Source: a virus
Virus record (IMG/VR): IMGVR_UViG_3300049216_000067
Strand: one strand, 5' to 3'
Length of the DNA: 64,000 nucleotides
In this document: positions 2,361 through 53,814 of the stretch, piece by piece
Layout: the number at the start of each line of letters is the position of its first letter
How positions within the stretch are numbered: the first letter of the stretch is position 1
The notes under the pieces: generated by a model
Databases searched by the model: none
What the model saw: the letters and a program-made list of their open reading frames with translations, nothing else
Told to the model about the DNA's origin: nothing
Translations under genes and position numbers: made by a program

Positions 2361-2942
2361 TTATATGCTTAATTGAGTAAAAACTCCATAGTAAGCAGTA
2401 CCATAGCAGCCTTGCTCGGCTAATTTGACGGTAGAACCTTTGGCACCAATCCATTTATTAAGATTAGCTTCTGTGAGTTCATGAGGATGACCATCATGGG
2501 CAGGAATATCGATCCATTCAAATAGTCTTAAAATTGGTGCAGCAGCAAAGGCATTCTTGATGATCTTTTCTGGATCGATAGCATGTTGCATGCAGTTGTA
2601 GATCCAGACTTCATCATAATGTCTTAAAGCTAAACCGTTTTTAGCGATATCTTCACCTGGCATGATAACCACAGTGATATTCATAAGCTTGTATCGATCA
2701 ACCGTCCATTGTGGATAGGCAATCGGATCAACAACCGTTCCACGCTTTAATCCTTTAGTCTTTAACAGCATTGACGATGGTCCACCACCGATATCCATGA
2801 TGATCTTATTATGGACAGGAAAGGAATAGTGTTCACGTTGAAGACCCATGTACTTGGCATACACGTAGTGCTTCTGGTCTTCATCGAAGGTGTTGCAACA
2901 GTTGCCCCAGTAATCTTCTTCGAACTTATAATCTTCACTCAT
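2361..2942 (-). CDS. Class I SAM-dependent methyltransferase-like protein
   Basis: IMDIGGGP motif I and VVDP motif II. Start moved to MSEDY (2942), which overlaps the gp55 stop. Confidence 0.65.
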   Translation of the reverse strand: MSEDYKFEEDYWGNCCNTFDEDQKHYVYAKYMGLQREHYSFPVHNKIIMDIGGGPSSMLLKTKGLKRGTVVDPIAYPQWTVDRYKLMNITVVIMPGEDIAKNGLALRHYDEVWIYNCMQHAIDPEKIIKNAFAAAPILRLFEWIDIPAHDGHPHELTEANLNKWIGAKGSTVKLAEQGCYGTAYYGVFTQLSI

Positions 2943-3549
2943 TGGTTTCTTCAATAGATTCCAGAGATACTTCATCTTCCATGGCTATCTCCAATCCCTT
3001 TTTCTTTTTAGGAAGCGCCTTCTTGGCTTTAGCACGTTCCTGAGATTCTTCATACTTACCAATGAAGTCAGTGATGTTCTCGTATAGCTCAAACTGTTCA
3101 CCTGGATTGTCTTCATCACTGTATTCGGCATCGTGAAGGACACCGGCTTGCTGTGTAGCTTTGTATTTGATGTAGAGATGCTTCTTTTCACGTTGGATTC
3201 TACGAACAAACGCATAAAAAGTAATTTTAGAAAAGTAAGCAAATGGATACTTGGACTTCTTAGGATCAAAGTTATCAAAGTACATAATACAATTTTCAAT
3301 AGCATCACCAATCATGTCTGCTTTGAAAGTGTATTGACTAAAATTAGGCTTATGTGAAAGATTAATAGCAATCAATTGAATTTGTTTGCCAATAGAATCA
3401 GGAATCTTTGGTTTAGGTAACTTGGCTCTCTTAGCTGCTCGACACTCTTTACGATATTGAGTGATAGCTGCCAACATTTCTTTGTTGTTGACATATGGAG
3501 TTGTATCTTTGGATGTGGTGCTTAGTTCTGGGATGAACTTGGATGTCAT
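2935..3549 (-). CDS. gp55: Late-transcription sigma factor
   Basis: YVNNKEM, NFSQYTFKADMIGDAIENC and PFAYFSKITFYAFVRRIQREKK are typical of gp55. Confidence 0.95.
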   Translation of the reverse strand: MTSKFIPELSTTSKDTTPYVNNKEMLAAITQYRKECRAAKRAKLPKPKIPDSIGKQIQLIAINLSHKPNFSQYTFKADMIGDAIENCIMYFDNFDPKKSKYPFAYFSKITFYAFVRRIQREKKHLYIKYKATQQAGVLHDAEYSDEDNPGEQFELYENITDFIGKYEESQERAKAKKALPKKKKGLEIAMEDEVSLESIEETNE

Positions 3550-3644
3550 TATGAAAGACCTTTATTATTTTTATTGTGGTCACGAAATTCATAATGAATA
3601 GAAACCGTCTAAGTAACTATAATACCTAATAGGATATTAACACT

Positions 3645-3980
3645 TATATTTCACTGATGGTCATAGGATTAACCTAGCAAACTTAATTGCAGTTAATCTC
3701 AGGACCAGGAGTGACATTTCACTAGGGTTCTTAGGTACAACCCCCAACCTGCCGACAGGACTACTTAATGGCCTTCAGAACTCTGACCAACATACTTCGG
3801 GTTTCCTGTCTACTTGAGTCCCTAGCGTGTGTGTATGTAACCCTTCTCACGCATGTAAGATCCAGACGAACGGCTTTCACGGATAATCTGGAAATCTCTC
3901 GATCTGCAATCGAGCGTCGTATGGCAAGGTATGTTTGGTTCGATGAACCGGTGCTCAAAGGCTAGTTGTATGCTTAATAT
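3645..3980 (-). ncRNA. Putative structured RNA (~330 nt) of unknown class
   Basis: No credible ORF. It lies downstream of a TTGACA-N17-TAAGAT promoter and has many complementary segments, including crossing pairings (see findings). Confidence 0.55.
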
Positions 3981-3986
3981 AAACTT

Positions 3987-4015
3987 ATCTTAACAAACAC
4001 TTTCTTTAATGTCAA
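3987..4015 (-). promoter_or_regulatory. sigma70-type promoter
   Basis: Minus strand reads TTGACA-TTAAAGAAAGTGTTTGT(17)-TAAGAT. Confidence 0.75.
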
Positions 4016-4192
4016 TTACTTCTTGACTTGCTGTCTCGTAATGAACGGTGTAATAGCAGTTCCATCCTTGGCCTTCACTTCGACGTACTGGCCAGGTGTA
4101 AGAGTTGCCATGATATGGATTCCGTCCAAAGCCAAAAGTTCAAGAACTTCACCTTGGGTCGATTTGTTTTGTATGTAGATTGAGGCTGTCAT
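4016..4192 (-). CDS. Small hypothetical protein (58 aa), not in the ORF track
   Basis: MTASIYIQNKSTQGEVLELL...VKK; ATG overlaps the uvsW stop (ATGA). Confidence 0.6.
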   Translation of the reverse strand: MTASIYIQNKSTQGEVLELLALDGIHIMATLTPGQYVEVKAKDGTAITPFITRQQVKK

Positions 4193-5718
4193 TTTGGGTC
4201 CTTTAATTCTATTGCGTAGTGTGAAGTATTAAACTTCTCATTGGTGTAAAGCTTCATTCGCTTGACGTAGTGGTCAAGTGTGTAGTTGAAATCGTCTCTT
4301 GCATTTTCTCTAAAGTCGTCTGCGATATCGTACAACGTAGCGGTTGTTTTCCCATCTCCAAGACCGAGAGAGCGTCCAATACTTTGTAATGTTCTGATCT
4401 TCGCTTTTGTAGGTGTGGCGAGAATGATGTTGTGTAGGTTGCGGATAGTAATTCCGGTACTGAACACAAATGATCCCACGATAATAGCATCTCGTTCACC
4501 GTCAACGATTCTACGGATTTCTTCTCGGACATCGGTTTCCGTAGTACCATTAACAAAGTATACTTTTCTTGCACTTCCATTCAATTTATCCTTAATAAGA
4601 TCGTATATTATACGACCATGTTTTTCATAATGAAACATCAACAATGTATTACCTTCGAGAGAAATGGCTAGATTTCGAATAAATCGATTCCTAGGAAGGT
4701 AATTGATTATATAGTCCATCTCTGCTTTATAACCGGCAGCGGCACTGATTCCGGAAACCAATAGTCTGACTTTATCTTTGGTACCGATAGGGTATTTAAG
4801 AACAAGACTTTTAATAGATAAAGTAGCAATGTGTCCATCATCCATTAATTTCTTGGTTGTGGTTAGTTTTGAAATAGGACCAAAATAACCTTCAACCTTA
4901 AGATTATTCACATCCTCTTCATGGGTCGTACCTGTAGTTGCCAATCGATAAGATGCATTGACGCATCTTCCGGCAACCTTACCTATCTCGGAAGCTGAAA
5001 ATGTATGGGCTTCGTCGCCTATAATGTAGTCGAACTGTTCAAAGAACGTATTAGGCAGCTTATAGAGGCTTTGCCACGTAGATATCAAAAGTTGAGTGCC
5101 TGGGAGCACCTGATTGCTATAACCTTCGTAAAGCCTCTGTACGCGGTCCTGTACCGGCCATTGGTTGGCGCTAGAGTAATCCTCGAAGTCCGTGTACATC
5201 TGCTCTACGAGGCTTGTGGTAGGAACCACGAGCAATCCCCTAGAACATTTACTGCCCAGTAAATATCGAACGTAACCATAAATCATGTAGCTTTTACCGG
5301 ATCGAGTCGGACTGATCATGGTTAAACGTTTGTAACGAATAGCTTTGGCTAAACCGATTTCTTGATATTCCCTGGCTTCAAGTGATTCACCACGACTGTG
5401 GATATTCAAACTCTTAAGAAACTCTTTGGCTTCTAATCTTGAAAAATCGTTGTATAAGAATATTTCCCGGTTGAATCCAATTGTATACTTACGTTCCCTG
5501 GCAAAATCAAACAGGTATTTGAGCAATCCGCTATAGAGGTATCGAGTTCGAAGATTGTATAGACGGACGTATCCATCCCAGCCTTTTCTTCCACCTGGTG
5601 TGAATTGAAAGTTTGGTTTTTGAAATTTGAAGAATTCACTGAGTTCTTTTTCGATGCCTGGATCTGCTGTAACTTTCGTGTAAACTTCATTAATCTTTTG
5701 AAGTTGAATGTCCGTCAT
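4189..5718 (-). CDS. uvsW: SF2 DNA/RNA helicase
   Basis: SPTRSGKS, GDEAH, LQSIGRSL motifs; GWDGYVRLYN N-terminal region. Confidence 0.95.
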   Translation of the reverse strand: MTDIQLQKINEVYTKVTADPGIEKELSEFFKFQKPNFQFTPGGRKGWDGYVRLYNLRTRYLYSGLLKYLFDFARERKYTIGFNREIFLYNDFSRLEAKEFLKSLNIHSRGESLEAREYQEIGLAKAIRYKRLTMISPTRSGKSYMIYGYVRYLLGSKCSRGLLVVPTTSLVEQMYTDFEDYSSANQWPVQDRVQRLYEGYSNQVLPGTQLLISTWQSLYKLPNTFFEQFDYIIGDEAHTFSASEIGKVAGRCVNASYRLATTGTTHEEDVNNLKVEGYFGPISKLTTTKKLMDDGHIATLSIKSLVLKYPIGTKDKVRLLVSGISAAAGYKAEMDYIINYLPRNRFIRNLAISLEGNTLLMFHYEKHGRIIYDLIKDKLNGSARKVYFVNGTTETDVREEIRRIVDGERDAIIVGSFVFSTGITIRNLHNIILATPTKAKIRTLQSIGRSLGLGDGKTTATLYDIADDFRENARDDFNYTLDHYVKRMKLYTNEKFNTSHYAIELKDPK

Positions 5719-42564: not shown

Positions 42565-43421
42565 TACTGTTCCTCCTATACAACTAGGATCACTTTAATC
42601 TTAAAGAATTAAGATGTCAAGCAAGATGCGCAGCGCAAATCCAGCAACGATCAAAATTGCAACACCAAACAGAAATGCGTCTAGATCATTCATATGGCTA
42701 ACGTTCCATTGACATCTAGAATTTTCTTGTCAATCTCGGCAATCTTCTGCTCGATTTCATCTAGAACACTTTCAACCCTAATAAGACCGATTTCTGAATC
42801 GTGGATCAATGTGTACCTACCATTGTCGATAACATTGTTAATTTTATTAATGGTATTGGTCATAGATATGGCTCCAACTTCCATATATCTGGAATGTGTA
42901 TAATCATGAAGTTCGAGTATTTTGTGTTCAATTAAATAATACATTGTTCTGTATCCTCAGTTTGTTTAGATACTTCTATCATAGCAGAAAGATCTTTAAT
43001 ATTCATATTTGATGTTCCACGATTGACAATTTGTGATGTTCAAGATGACAAGATCTGCATAACCACTTGACTGTATGAGGATCGTTATAATCTTCGTGAT
43101 GTGCTTGACTCTTTGGGTCATCACACATCTCACAGGCTTTCTTAATAATATGGCCACGTTTTAATAAGCCATCTAAATCACCGTGTTCTTATTACGGTCC
43201 TATTATCCCAGCGAACCTTTTAAGACTCAAAATTTTATTTTTAATTTTTTGAAACGGACTTATTAAGAAACGTGCAGCAGCGAACCTTTAAGAACAATCC
43301 TATTAAAATTTTTAAAATTAAAGAGAGCAACTAACGAAGGTACCCCGAACAGAGAGTAGAAGCCACTCCCCGGATGGGACCCAGAAACACTGTATTTTTG
43401 ACATAATAGGATTGGACATAT

Positions 43422-43564
43422 GCTCAGCACATGTGACATATGCTGTCGCATGGCTCAGCACATGTGACATATGCTGTCGCATGGCTCAGCACATGTGACA
43501 TATGCTGTCGCATGGCTCAGCACATGTGACATATGCTGTCGCATGGCTCAGCACATGTGACATA
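43422..43564. repeat. Perfect 31-bp tandem repeat, about 4.6 copies
   Basis: Unit GCTCAGCACATGTGACATATGCTGTCGCATG at 43422, 43453, 43484, 43515 and a partial copy at 43546. Confidence 0.97.
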
Positions 43565-43630
43565 AGAGTCAAGTATTAAAACTGTGACACAGTAAGCACT
43601 AATAGCACTCCATTACAATGCATTATGGTT

Positions 43631-44194
43631 AATAGGAACTTGTCCGGACGGACATAGGGCTTGACAATACGATATTGTGACGCACAGCACAGAATAGTTC
43701 CTATTAGGTGGGCTAATAAGACTGTCTAATGTAACATATTGTGTTTCTCACACTTGACACGCGACTGTCAATCATTAATAGGACATAACATAGCTGTGTG
43801 CTGATAACGTGATGCACATCACAGATTATACAAATAGGAACTTGTCCGGACGGACATGGGGCTTGACATTATAAAAGTGTGAACCAGCGCACAGTAACGG
43901 CCTACGGCACGTAGGGATTAGTCCTATTAGTGCGCTCGGTGGACACTGCCTCAGTATGAAATTAATTAATAATAAGGCATAATAGCATGAATAGAATTCA
44001 TGTCGTTATTCGTTTGGGCTAGACTAGCTTCTATATCAAAGGGTTAATAGCAATAGGACAGCATAAGACGCTATTAGAGCCGATCTAATAGGAAAGGTAA
44101 TAAAGGGGCAGGGATAGACTGAAAGCCGCTATAAAGCGATCCTATTAGAATCAAATTGAACATAATCTTAATAGGAACTTGTCCGGACGGACAT
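43631..44194 (+). repeat. Three exact 25-bp direct repeats AATAGGAACTTGTCCGGACGGACAT
   Basis: At 43631-43655, 43833-43857 and 44170-44194. Confidence 0.95.
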
Positions 44195-44215
44195 AGGATT
44201 GTGGGGGGGGGACAC

Positions 44216-44241
44216 AAAAAAGCCCTGACTGGCAGGGCTTT
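44216..44241 (-). terminator. Intrinsic terminator at the left end of the island
   Basis: AAAGCCCTG-CCAGT-CAGGGCTTTTT. Confidence 0.75.
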
Positions 44242-44296
44242 GGTTAAGACTCACGGACGTTTCGTCTGTGATAAGACTCACGGCAGAGAGGGTTTC

Positions 44297-44676: not shown

Positions 44677-45598
44677 TCATGAATGCGACTCCAGGCTATC
44701 AATCGCATAGTCCGCGTTCATGCTCTCAGCCAATTCGATTGCCTCAAAATCATAGAATTCCTGAGAGCCTATCACCGCGTTAGTGAGTTCACTCCAAACG
44801 ACAAATTTGCCGTCGCCTACGGAGCGAACCTGATACGGACCATTTAGTCTTTTGTTGCCCATGCTCTGTATCTCCTTTGATGAATCGACCTAATAGGATC
44901 ATGCAAGGGGCATGCCAATAGCAAACAAAACAATCAGGGCGCTAATAGGATCATTCTACTAGCGTGACCCTGACAAATTTTGTCAGTCTGTGACGGTTTC
45001 AGCCCTTTAGCGTCGATAGCTGCCAGTGTCGGTGACAGCAACGTAACAGGCGACGATTGCGGCAAACATTAAGAACATTGACATATGGTGTACTCCTTTT
45101 TAGACAGTTTTGGACAATGAAACAATGTCAGTATCGTTTGACACTACATCGACGCGGCTTAAACCCGTGTAAAGAAATTTTTCCTTAATAATACGGTTCA
45201 TTGCGCGGATTGCAGCGTTGCGCGTCGATGCCTCAATGCAAACAATGATGTTCCCGCTTGCATCGTAGCCAATGGCATCATAAGTCTCGGTAGAGTCATA
45301 ATCGCCTGACATATGGTGTACTCCTTTAAGTGAGAGTGATTTAACTTAATAGCTATTCGCGCCCATAGTCCCAGTCACCATGTTGCATCGCGTCTGCGGC
45401 ATCTGCCTCGCCCTCGCGATAGGCGTCGATAATATCCCGGACGGCAATCTCCGGACTGCAATTGTACGAATTGACATACTCGCACGCTTCCATAAACAGG
45501 GTTTCCATGTCCAAGTGATCCGGAAGCAACGCATCTTTAATGATGAGCATGATTGCCGCGTTTCGCGCTTGTATCGACTGGTATACCGTGTCCGACAT
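44677..45598 (-). CDS. Small early-type ORFs (44677-44862; 45007-45084; 45100-45312; 45353-45598)
   Basis: Strong AAGGAG RBSs; leader AAAGGAGTACACCATATGTCA duplicated before two of them. Confidence 0.65.
44902..44918 (-). promoter_or_regulatory. sigma54 (-24/-12) promoter P1
   Basis: TTGGCATGCCCCTTGCA; TGACA-AATTT-TGTCA at 44971-44985. Confidence 0.8.
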
Positions 45599-51216: not shown

Positions 51217-53814
51217 ATGAAATTCGACAAATCTCAATTCCAGTATTCTAGCAAGTACCTGACTTATGGTCCGGATCGCAAGTTCGTGGCTCGATTCAAG
51301 TACGGCTCAAAGGCATCGTTTCAGGCGTTTCTAATCAAGAATTTCACGGTTGAAGAGTACTTCAGCCTGCTTGAAACGGTGAAGGATGACGCTAGCCGTC
51401 GCACGTATGCGCCGCTGGAAGTTCTTGAACTGAAGGGTTATCTCAGTGACAATTGCAAGCGTGCTTGCCGTCTCGCTGGTTTCCCTCAGACTCGGGAAGG
51501 TTTTCAGGCTCTCATTCAGTCACAAATTACGGCTCGGCAATAGGAGGTTTCAATCATGGCTCAATTCAAACTCATTCAAGAAGCTGTGTTGCGTAACAGT
51601 CTCGATTGCGAATTGGATCGCGTCGAGTTGCGCATGCACGGTGGCGAATATCTCATGCCTCAGGATGTTATTCGCTGGTTCAAGAATCTCTGCGTCGGTG
51701 ATACCATCACGATTGAAGAGCGCGAAACGGAGGTAGAATAAATGAGTAACTCTTGTTTATTGCTGGTCGCTATCATAGGATGCGCTATGACTGGGCACTG
51801 GTTGCTGGTCTTGGTTTTCGCGCTTCTTTTCATGGGTTGTCGTAAGGAGAAAATCTAATGCACGGCTATTCAATTATTCCTGATATCCTTGTGATCCTGT
51901 TTCTGCTGGCTCTTGAGGATAGCTTTCGCAAGAAGTCTAAGCCGGTCGATAAGACTGAGACTGTGACTCCCGTTAAGCCCAAGTCTCGGTTTTGGTATTA
52001 CCAGGATCGCACTGGCAAGGTTCACACGGAGATTCGGCAATGAATACTAAGACAGCTGTCTATCATGGCATGTGTGATCGTTATCACAAGTACATCGACA
52101 CGGTAGGAATTGTGTATTTCTTGTTGGATCTGCCGCGAGATGCACAAGGAAATTATATTCCTGTCGGTACCACCGTGACTTTAACATACTGTTTTACTAG
52201 CAGCTATGGTAACTGGTTTCCCTCACTGGAGGTTCAGAAATGAAACGTGCCAGCTACAAACGGGCTATTGAATTCGTTGCAAATGAAGATAGTGCGGGCG
52301 ACGGCAATGCTCTCGATGCTAATGAAGTGCAATGGTTAATTACTGCGGTTCTTGTTGCTGATATTTTCGATGTACCAAACGAAAAAGTCGGCAAGGATAT
52401 CGTGGCTTATCGCAAGAAGCATCATGAAAGACATCGCTAGTATTGCTGAGGCACGCGAGCGCAAAGAGTTTATTAAACGATTAATTGAAGCTGCCAACAA
52501 AGCGAACGCATTGCGGTTTTCTCGATGGCAAGCAATAGCAAATAGGAGTAAAAGACAATGAAAATTAAATGGAAAGTTCAACCGGCTCCGACTGGTCGCT
52601 ATCGTTCATTCGAGCGACGCGGTTGGCCTAGTGGCACGATCAATGACGAGGCAGTTGCTTTTCTTCGATGTGAACATGATTACACGGCAAAGCTTGCTAA
52701 GGGTGAACCTACTTTCGATGGCACTCCACCTGTCATTAGTGTCTGGGTCGCAGATTGGACCGCTCATAATACCGGTACTCGCACGAAAAACGATACGGCT
52801 TTTGTGTGGCGTTGTCTTAAGGCTCGATTCAGTAACGTGGCTGATGCGAAAGCGGCTGCTCAAAGTTTCTTGGATTCGCATCCGAATTTTCTTCCCAATA
52901 TCCCTAAGAAGGAGTCAACCATTGAAGGTTTCTCGAATTAAAGAAGTTCGTTCTATTACAGGCTTTGGTTTGAAAGAAGCCAAAGACATGGTAGAATGTC
53001 AGTCTTTCATAGACGCGATAAAATAGGAGAAAGAAATGCCCGCATTTAGAATCGTTGCCAATAAGACTTACGCATCTGAAGCCAATGCGATCAAGGCAGC
53101 TGAAGCGAAGTTTGGCGAACAGAATCTACGCTATTTCATCATGACCGAGAAGGATGAAATAACGTATACCACTCGTTATTTTCCTGTTTTCGTCGGTGAG
53201 GCAGCTATACGTGCTGGCGTACATTTTCATTTCAACGTGATTGGATAAGGAGTAAACATGAACGAGTCTATTGATTACGGTGATATCGATTATGAGGACA
53301 AGGAAACAACTGAGTCGGTGCCGGGTGAAGTATCTGTCACTGAGACGATTCTTGTTTATGTTCCTGGCGCTGTCGGTGGCAAATGGGTTACATCCGATCC
53401 TGATGACGATGACCAGGAGTCAGTTACATTTAGCAAGGATATTCATCTTGCATTCGAGTTTACTGATATCGAGCATGCGAAACGTTCGAAGTATTTGATT
53501 GAAACGGAATTCAATATTGAGTCTCTTGTCATGGTGGAATCGAAATGATTACTAAAAAGCGTCAAATGTTGGCTGTGCCTCAGATTAACATCAACGGCAC
53601 ATCGAGAGGCGAGTTGCAAATGCAATGTCGTGAAGTTTACGATGCCCTGATTGAGGCTCAAAAGGCTCTGATGCGTATGACGCCGCATGGTCGCGACTAT
53701 CAAACCATCGGCTTTGAAACGTATGAGTTGGCTCGGTCTCAACATTTAGATAGAGTTCGGTCTATTGAACATCTTTTAGAGGAAATTCACGAAATAAGCG
53801 TGAGCCTATTGTAA
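51217..53814 (+). other. Operon of about 12 small hypothetical ORFs
   Basis: Abutting plus-strand ORFs (51217, 51556, 51858, 52040, 52240, 52558, 53036, 53258, 53545 and others) with RBSs. Confidence 0.7.
52922..53026 (+). CDS. 34-aa ribosomal protein bL12 C-terminal-domain-like peptide
   Basis: AAGGAG RBS then TTG; KVSRIKEVRSITGFGLKEAKDMVE. Confidence 0.6.
   Translation: MKVSRIKEVRSITGFGLKEAKDMVECQSFIDAIK

Follow-up and report, generated by a model that had tools for sequence, protein, structure and literature searches.

A non-coding segment behind a conserved early promoter precedes gp55 in a T4-like phage and lies in a slot that holds a structured RNA in sister phages

The stretch before gp55, the late sigma factor gene, in a 64,000-nt piece of viral DNA (IMG/VR record IMGVR_UViG_3300049216_000067; this whole piece is hereafter the window) is non-coding, and most likely represents a non-coding RNA whose transcription starts at a host-type early promoter. 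The more solid result concerns the relatives of this phage, in which the same position is a polymorphic RNA slot and, in a group of sister phages, holds an uncatalogued RNA family, here named type A, which is genuinely structured and in which base pairing is clearly selected for. The window's own copy of the element (W) is not type A by tests of either sequence or structure, but it has the frame of type A, and the fold proposed for it is no better than chance. Related loci, designated by L-numbers, were gathered with gp55 and uvsW.1 from IMG/VR, JGI metagenomes and other assemblies.

Genomic context and coding potential

Every gene in this part of the window is carried by the minus strand (Table 1). 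The flanking genes had been named uvsW and gp55 in an earlier, sequence-only reading of this DNA, and Pfam and PHROG searches uphold both identities; the small uvsW.1-like ORF between uvsW and the gap has homologues 68-100% identical that adjoin uvsW on other contigs. The gp55 protein shares 46-54% identity with its counterparts in a pelagiphage and in cyanophages, and the phage is accordingly classed as a distant, uncultivated T4-like myovirus.

The ORF-poor gap described in that reading is real, its 466 nt being open only for two overlapping 65-aa frames, one per strand. Neither frame has a Pfam or PHROG match in family searches or a homologue in searches of 5.8 and 1.8 billion proteins, neither is present in the alleles of relatives, and the alignments of relatives contain many indels that are not multiples of three. 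It might be proposed that the product is one or more small proteins, encoded by a 65-aa frame or a mini-ORF, given that such frames are open on both strands; however, the want of homologues, families and counterparts in relatives, together with the TTG start of the minus-strand frame and its lack of a ribosome site, makes this very improbable. The G+C content of the gap is 0.43-0.50, compared with 0.25-0.33 in the immediate flanks, and no terminator-like site was detected within 3400-4300.

Searches for catalogued RNAs were uniformly negative. ARAGORN detected no tRNA or tmRNA in the window, no Rfam 15 model (4227 models) reached its gathering score across the 64 kb, and cmscan of positions 3500-4100 on both strands, a check suggested in the sequence-only reading, gave 0 matches even at E≤10. 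At the DNA level the element had no match among 50,697 phage records, and its CTAG count (4, against about 1.1 expected) is too weak a signal to use. Elsewhere in the window, the stretches 42945-44296, 44681-45099 and 51544-51991 (0.4-1.35 kb, G+C 0.41-0.47) contain no ORF of at least 70 aa and may hold small genes or further non-coding RNAs.

Table 1. Positions of the features discussed, in the window unless a locus is named
Feature	Position	Strand	Basis or remark
gp55, late-transcription sigma factor	2935-3549	minus	phrog_234, E = 2e-56
Conserved gp55 upstream region	3541-3621	minus	88% identical to L001
Gap without genes	3550-4015	minus	466 nt, between uvsW.1-like ORF and gp55
3' tail motif UAGUUACUUAG, palindromic TAGTnACTA box	3609-3619	minus	closes every allele
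Replaced segment, 352 nt	3622-3973	minus	no ORF with homologues
Long imperfect 3' hairpin	3648-3717	minus	arms 3648-3673 and 3692-3717, 77% complementary
Motif GCAGGUUGGGGGUUGUACCUA, 21 nt	3732-3752	minus	18/21 identical to L002, z = 5.4
5' leader module: hairpin GGUUC-AUC-GAACC (3949-3937), then CA-rich run	3929-3971	minus
Host sigma70-type early promoter, TTGACA-N17-(TG)TAAGAT	3987-4015	minus	consensus scan, 10/12 with TG
58-aa ORF in uvsW.1 position	4016-4192	minus	ORF list; overlaps uvsW stop
UvsW helicase	4189-5718	minus	Pfam UvsW_N, ResIII, DEAD, Helicase_C
Type A copy	L001:2659-2924
Type A copy	L174:1787-2089
Type A copy	L175:473-775
Type A copy	L177:1152-1448
Type A copy	L178:1136-1439
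Type A copy	L179:1104-1421
Type A copy	L088:1-270
Type A copy (partial)	L089:1-165

Early promoter

The near-perfect sigma70 promoter reported from the sequence alone was found again by the consensus scan, and predicts a transcription start near 3980 on the minus strand. A lone match of this kind lies within shuffle expectation (2.1±1.3), so support for the promoter comes from its conservation in relatives rather than from the scan score. An identical TTGACA-N17-TAAGAT is retained in L001, L002, L173, L174 and L175, and promoter-like -10 elements stand before the RNA in L177, L178, L179 and L004, even with a different gene upstream. The 64-kb window contains only four TTGACA-type promoter matches, none of which repeats the promoter of the element.

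Replacement of the segment in the nearest relative

The nearest relative, represented by the equivalent loci L001, L086 and L087, encodes a gp55 protein 97% identical to that of the window. Its DNA is 96-97% identical from 6577 down to 3974, a breakpoint only a few bases past the -10 element, then loses all similarity over 3973-3622, and is again 86% identical from 3621 through gp55. The dissimilar interval is filled in L001 by about 330 nt of ORF-free, G+C-richer sequence, the type A allele. This alignment pattern shows modular replacement of the segment between two otherwise very similar phages.

Within the replaced segment of W, the leader module (43 nt) is 84% identical to the type A leader of L177 (z = 17.6), and direct reading of its hairpin, GGUUC/GAACC in W and GGGUC/GACCC in L177, indicates a compensatory change. 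The remainder, here called the body, is an orphan. Under strict alignment costs, W has in common with the other alleles only the leader, the GCAGGUUGGGGGUUGUACCUA motif and the tail, and GCAGGUUGGGGGUUGUACCUA is the single body motif that W has in common with another allele. The shorter CAGGUUGG is found in W, L002 and L173, and the order of leader hairpin, CAGGUUGG and tail in W is the expected one. A complementary AAC(C)UGC lies downstream of GCAGGUUGGGGGUUGUACCUA both in W (3698-3687 region) and in L002, where it forms a 10-bp helix; as the W and L002 sequences are near-identical there, this helix does not count as covariation. The tail of W ends in UAGUUACU (3619-3612), and the TAGTTACT tail is common to W and other alleles.

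None of the alleles matches the 5' half of the body (3923-3771), and the body has no paralogue within the window. Scans of IMG/VR with the uvsW.1 end plus promoter pattern and with AATCGGCNAACCTATCC returned only the L001 contig plus chance coding matches, those with the 21-mer and with a three-motif pattern returned only the L002 contig, a genome-contig scan with gp55 yielded one distant, irrelevant match, and no further copy of the body was present on contigs P0006, P0007, P0008 and P0014. A 27-nt imperfect direct repeat (3716-3742 and 3648-3674, 70% identical, with GGUUGUACCUAAGAACCCUAGUGAAAU and GGUUAAUCCUAUGACCAUCAGUGAAAU) overlaps the 3' hairpin of W, and L002 likewise has AGGUUGGAGAU twice.

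Type A RNA in sister phages

Type A was found in eight loci (Table 1). The seven copies other than that of L001 are 70-83% identical to one another, and the gp55 proteins of type A phages range down to about 68-85% identity. The structure was evaluated on an eight-sequence alignment, in which L174 and L175 (97% identical) count nearly as one sequence, with nine helices and 55 pairs, including a possible CCGGUU/AAUCGG pseudoknot. In this alignment 95.0% of cells are paired, and sliding the 3' partners by 1-3 columns lowers this to 41.5-46.9%; both sides have changed in 18 pairs, against 2-7 in the slid controls; and the covariation score was reached by 0 of 500 shuffles. The same core is yielded by RNAalifold, and several hairpins are wholly changed in sequence with pairing kept (for instance CUGUC/GACAG, CCCAC/GUGGG and CCAUC/GAUGG). 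The pairs of the candidate pseudoknot are invariant across the alignment and show no covariation.

Type A sequences also fold better than shuffles (z = -2.3 to -3.2), and a covariance model of the 3' domain gave the held-out L175 a score of 160 bits in the forward and 30 bits in the reverse direction. Since the forward score is far above the reverse and many G-U pairs are present, the structure is assigned to the gene-sense strand. It is the strong covariation that identifies type A as a genuine structured RNA; none of the eight loci had an Rfam match, an IMG/VR scan with the type A hairpin pattern returned only the L001 contig, and type A merits a family description of its own. Its invariant unpaired blocks are GUCCGGUUGA, GAAUCGGCAAACCUA and GAGGGAGAAUCGUG. 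In addition, GGGAGAAUCG occurs twice (alignment columns 88-102 and 269-282) and both copies can pair with CGAUUCUCUCC (234-246), a competition that could allow two mutually exclusive folds. The second copy contains a strong ribosome-site-like GAGGGAG, which is followed in most members by a 10-codon frame, MLV(M/I)ITAIE(C/S).

W has the same genomic slot, promoter, leader module and TAGTnACTA tail as type A. It does not carry the type A set formed by the blocks GUCCGGUUGA, GAAUCGGCAAACCUA, GGUUGYAC and GAGGGAGAAUCGUG and the 13+3+6-bp long hairpin; an nhmmer profile of type A matches W only at the promoter/leader and at the tail/gp55 flank, and the 3'-domain covariance model finds nothing in the window with filters on or off.

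Proposed fold of the window's element

The sequence-only reading had proposed that W is a large pseudoknotted RNA built from six helices. All six are present and perfectly complementary on the minus-strand RNA; their number and the folding energy, however, match those of shuffled sequence. W contains 18 perfect helices of at least 6 bp, compared with 14.5±4.0 in dinucleotide shuffles (13 of 60 shuffles match or exceed it), and 7 of at least 7 bp, compared with 3.6±2.0 (6 of 60). For the MFE, the transcribed strand has a z-score of -1.0 and the opposite strand one of -2.2 to -2.3. The specific pseudoknotted fold is thus not borne out, its helices being neither commoner nor more stable than chance and the body having no homologue in which covariation could appear; among the uvsW-gp55 regions of relatives, strong covariation is seen in type A. 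Two other features of the proposal hold. The long 3' stem was found independently by a repeat search and appears in both the MFE and the centroid folds, and the G-rich tract is present at 3753-3741, with a G5 run at 3745-3741.

Comparison with L002, the only partial relative of the body, does not add to the case for the fold. A covariance model of the 5' half of W with the proposed helices has no match in L002 or in any other allele, MAFFT plus RNAalifold on W and L002 gave no meaningful structure, and permissive helix matching between the two gave no discrimination. Helix equivalences drawn by eye (CUCGAU/AUCGAG with CUCUU/AAGAG, and GGGACUC..GAC with GGAAUC.GAC) were treated as unsupported and dropped because the W model missed L002. 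A lenient alignment of W and L002 (z = 8.6) is not evidence of a shared fold, since strict costs leave only the 21-mer significant.

The fold had also been likened to the core of group I ribozymes. A group-I-like or other self-processing ribozyme is suggested by UAAGUAGUCC at 3767-3758, which resembles the J8/7-P7 'S' element, and by an upstream GGACUCA that could, on direct reading, pair with it. Against this, neither Intron_gpI nor any self-cleaving ribozyme model matches W or the loci of eight relatives at E≤10, no gene is split, complete uvsW.1-like and gp55 ORFs flanking the segment, L002 is without counterparts of the P7-like UAGUCC and GGACU, and helices of this size are expected by chance. 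The resemblance to group I does not survive these comparisons, and a ribozyme of any such kind is hardly credible.

A further proposal, that the transcript is a replication-origin pre-primer RNA forming a persistent R-loop in the AT-rich DNA just downstream, as at T4 oriF/oriG or in ColE1 RNA II, draws on the location beside uvsW, which recalls T4 oriF. In T4, oriF and oriG adjoin uvsY and uvsW. In the window, an AT-rich stretch (3550-3650, G+C 0.25-0.30) with palindromic boxes follows the G+C-richer RNA, and the G5 run would suit such a structure. The G run is not conserved, however, L002 reading GGAGA and type A having none; there is no gene strand switch or local GC-skew turn in 2500-5500; and the AT-rich stretch is the conserved ribosome-site region of gp55. 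An origin RNA is improbable.

With the fold at chance level, the possibility that the body is functionless filler in this phage carries some weight: recombination at the promoter and tail boundaries would have replaced an ancestral type A, and only the promoter and the gp55 upstream region would matter. The orphan status of the body and its fold energy and helix counts agree with this, as does the junction, a recombination breakpoint recognizable by the fall in identity from 97% to 86%. On the other side, the exact UvsW.1 protein occurs on five contigs, and the one layout shown, from two samples, has the same 466-nt spacing, which indicates that the segment is stably kept. The G+C content exceeds that of the AT-rich flanks, as in the validated alleles, the leader hairpin, CAGGUUGG and tail are retained in order, and phage genomes rarely keep some 350 nt of filler. 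On balance, filler appears rather unlikely.

A polymorphic slot between uvsW and gp55

The slot is occupied by W, L002, type A, L173 and L004, that is, by at least four or five unrelated non-coding alleles, L002 being related to W only through GCAGGUUGGGGGUUGUACCUA. A host-type promoter stands before the RNA in each of them, and it does so even where genes intervene between uvsW.1 and the promoter, namely a cREC_REC protein in L177 and L178 and an 87-aa ORF in L179. Types A, B and C all end, on the 3' side, with the TAGTnACTA tail, and where an ORF has come between RNA and gp55, as in L002 and probably in L173, the tail is on the RNA side of it. Since an ORF separates the RNA from gp55 in L002, L004 and probably L173, the RNA is not strictly a gp55 leader.

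The less closely related occupants may be described briefly. The L173 allele (1684-2290), a third type, has the same promoter followed by about 560 nt without ORFs, and ends in UAGUUACUAGG; it has a GAUGAC-containing hairpin in common with type A, and its sense-strand fold has z = -2.6. In L004 (2290-2585; gp55 60% identical), the end of uvsW overlaps with a TTGACT-N17-TATAAT promoter, behind which come about 270 nt that are G+C-rich, free of ORFs and unrelated to the other alleles, then a 114-aa ORF and gp55. In L002 (2640-2675), the interval from the RNA tail to the 80-aa ORF contains TGTATTATAC three times in tandem. In relatives with gp55 identity of 63% or less, an ORF of about 140 aa is instead found directly upstream of gp55.

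Accessory ORFs at the junction were located at L177:613-1062, L178:604-1068, L179:747-1010, L002:2695-2937, L180:3-161 and L183:105-265. They include the cREC_REC-domain protein, the 87-aa and 80-aa products of no known family and, judged by eye, a Cys-rich protein of about 53 aa. As different small accessory ORFs collect there, the uvsW.1-gp55 junction is taken as a hyperplastic region, one that appears, from the loci compared, to be bounded by a conserved early promoter and a short box.

These features lend themselves to a different interpretation of the RNA, as a stand-alone early RNA acting in trans. It would then be an accessory 'moron' with an RNA payload, serving for example host takeover or anti-defence, and the promoter and tail would be recombination handles. 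This one slot has at least four or five non-coding occupants unrelated to each other, changes of neighbouring gene leave the promoter and tail attached to the RNA, and the junction is a hot spot for accessory ORFs (the cREC_REC, 87-, 80-, 114- and ~53-aa products). Payloads would be swapped in the way known for protein genes of T4 hyperplastic regions, and modular shuffling by means of cassettes with a conserved early promoter has been documented in T4-type phages (PMC2839356, PMC4122927). However, the RNA has no terminator or defined 3' end, resembles no known RNA, repeat mimics and tRNA-like RNAs included, and has no identifiable target, while gp55 follows every allele within 0-0.4 kb in the same orientation. 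An RNA acting in trans is a possibility to be taken seriously, although we do not favor it.

A broader and still tentative idea is that the freshwater and soil T4-like clade maintains a polymorphic RNA slot, in which unrelated structured bodies, interchangeable between a constant early promoter and leader and a constant tail, serve as different sensors or effectors that gate the late sigma factor or counter different host systems, W being one functional allele. Doubtful as it is, such a slot, if true, would do with RNA what the variable anti-defence loci of phages do with proteins.

The gp55 upstream region and late promoters

The region conserved upstream of gp55 contains two TCATnATGA boxes, at 3598-3588 and at 3555-3546, the second of which contains the AUG of gp55. 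The boxes form a perfect 10-nt inverted repeat (3546-3555 and 3588-3597) with the halves 42 nt apart, bracketing the gp55 ribosome site; the repeat is kept in L001, L174, L175 and L181 and is not found in all relatives, and could act as a stem in the RNA or, in the DNA, as two operator sites. Across 11 relatives this region has no consensus RNA structure, and none that links the tail to the ribosome site. The candidates considered for hiding the gp55 ribosome site, a GUGACC...GGUC hairpin or a pairing with TAGTTACTA, were rejected, as neither has a consensus across the 11 relatives, and L179 has the wrong sense. In L003, a 167-kb relative, tandem TTTGATTTTATC repeats at the contig end (1-60), just upstream of the gp55 region, may mark a genome terminus or an assembly edge.

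A T4-type late promoter before gp55 was also considered and rejected, its TATAAATA not being there. This sequence occurs four times in the window, on the minus strand only (6891, 11899, 32398 and 59697) and never on the plus strand. For at least two of the copies, a ribosome site and a start codon follow at a short distance, as would fit T4-type late promoters recognized by this gp55.

Proposed role of the element

The reading that we prefer, to which we give about an even chance, is that the element is an early non-coding RNA or long gp55 leader in the form of a modular, swappable cassette that could set the stability, processing or translation of the gp55 message. The host sigma70 polymerase would transcribe the cassette early, and the transcript would read on for about 430 nt into gp55; as no terminator follows, the RNA would at minimum be a long 5' leader of the early gp55 message. 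The promoter, the leader hairpin with its CA-rich run, and the TAGTnACTA tail are the parts common to sister phages, and the body of about 300 nt is the exchangeable part. Most of the relatives have the multi-helix type A body in that place, and W has an orphan body unrelated to it. The body would fold and thereby influence the fate of the gp55 message, and in this way the timing or amount of the late sigma factor. Transcription, read-through into gp55, the fold of W and its regulatory role are here what we infer from the DNA. The suggestion in the sequence-only reading of a novel non-coding RNA or late-sigma leader is therefore plausible as regards the non-coding character, the conserved promoter and the position in a slot of structured RNA in relatives, but not as regards the fold of W.

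Gene 55 controls the switch to late gene expression. To our knowledge, T4-like phages have very few described non-coding RNAs, none of which lies before gene 55. In the loci described here, phages otherwise 86-97% identical hold unrelated non-coding sequences in the same slot. If these RNAs control gp55, they would add a new layer of timing control to a textbook transcription cascade; action in trans would instead make them accessory genes of RNA that phages can exchange. For W itself, caution is due, its proposed fold being so far indistinguishable from chance.

Comparison with known systems

Like GOLLD, ROOL and the T4 RNAs rnaC and rnaD, the element is phage-encoded, ORF-free, several hundred nucleotides long, of no known function and multi-helix, the last as shown here for the type A allele. 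It differs from all four in having no sequence or structure match in Rfam 15 and in lying directly upstream of a late sigma gene with no terminator; it is also smaller than GOLLD or ROOL, and unrelated alleles occupy its one locus. Long structured 5' leaders and riboswitches likewise combine a conserved promoter with a folded non-coding segment before a regulatory gene, and the invariant unpaired blocks of type A resemble those of ligand- or protein-binding RNAs; unlike riboswitches, the element has no known aptamer class, no terminator/anti-terminator and no conserved platform that sequesters the ribosome site. The likeness to T4 oriF/oriG and ColE1 RNA II consists in an RNA that is driven by a promoter, adjoins uvsW and has AT-rich DNA after it, but here no G-run is conserved and the AT-rich DNA is the translation-initiation region of gp55. 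The likeness to group I introns (RF00028) is superficial, amounting to the S-element-like UAAGUAGUCC with a possible partner strand; there is no core match, there are no exons, and P7 is not kept in L002.

PeSL (promoter-early stem-loop) cassettes mediate modular shuffling in T4-type phages (PMC2839356, PMC4122927), and as in these, a conserved early promoter here bounds a segment that is exchanged between close T4-like relatives. Unlike PeSL, in which the payload is a small ORF, the payload here is non-coding RNA, and on the 3' side the segment is bounded by a TAGTnACTA box instead of a stem-loop terminator. PeSL cassettes, moreover, are present as many near-identical dispersed copies, each with a stem-loop terminator, whereas the window has only the four TTGACA-type matches and no terminator. 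Nothing catalogued matches the element, and the nearest kinds are the phage structured RNAs (GOLLD, ROOL and rnaC/rnaD) together with the PeSL-type cassettes.
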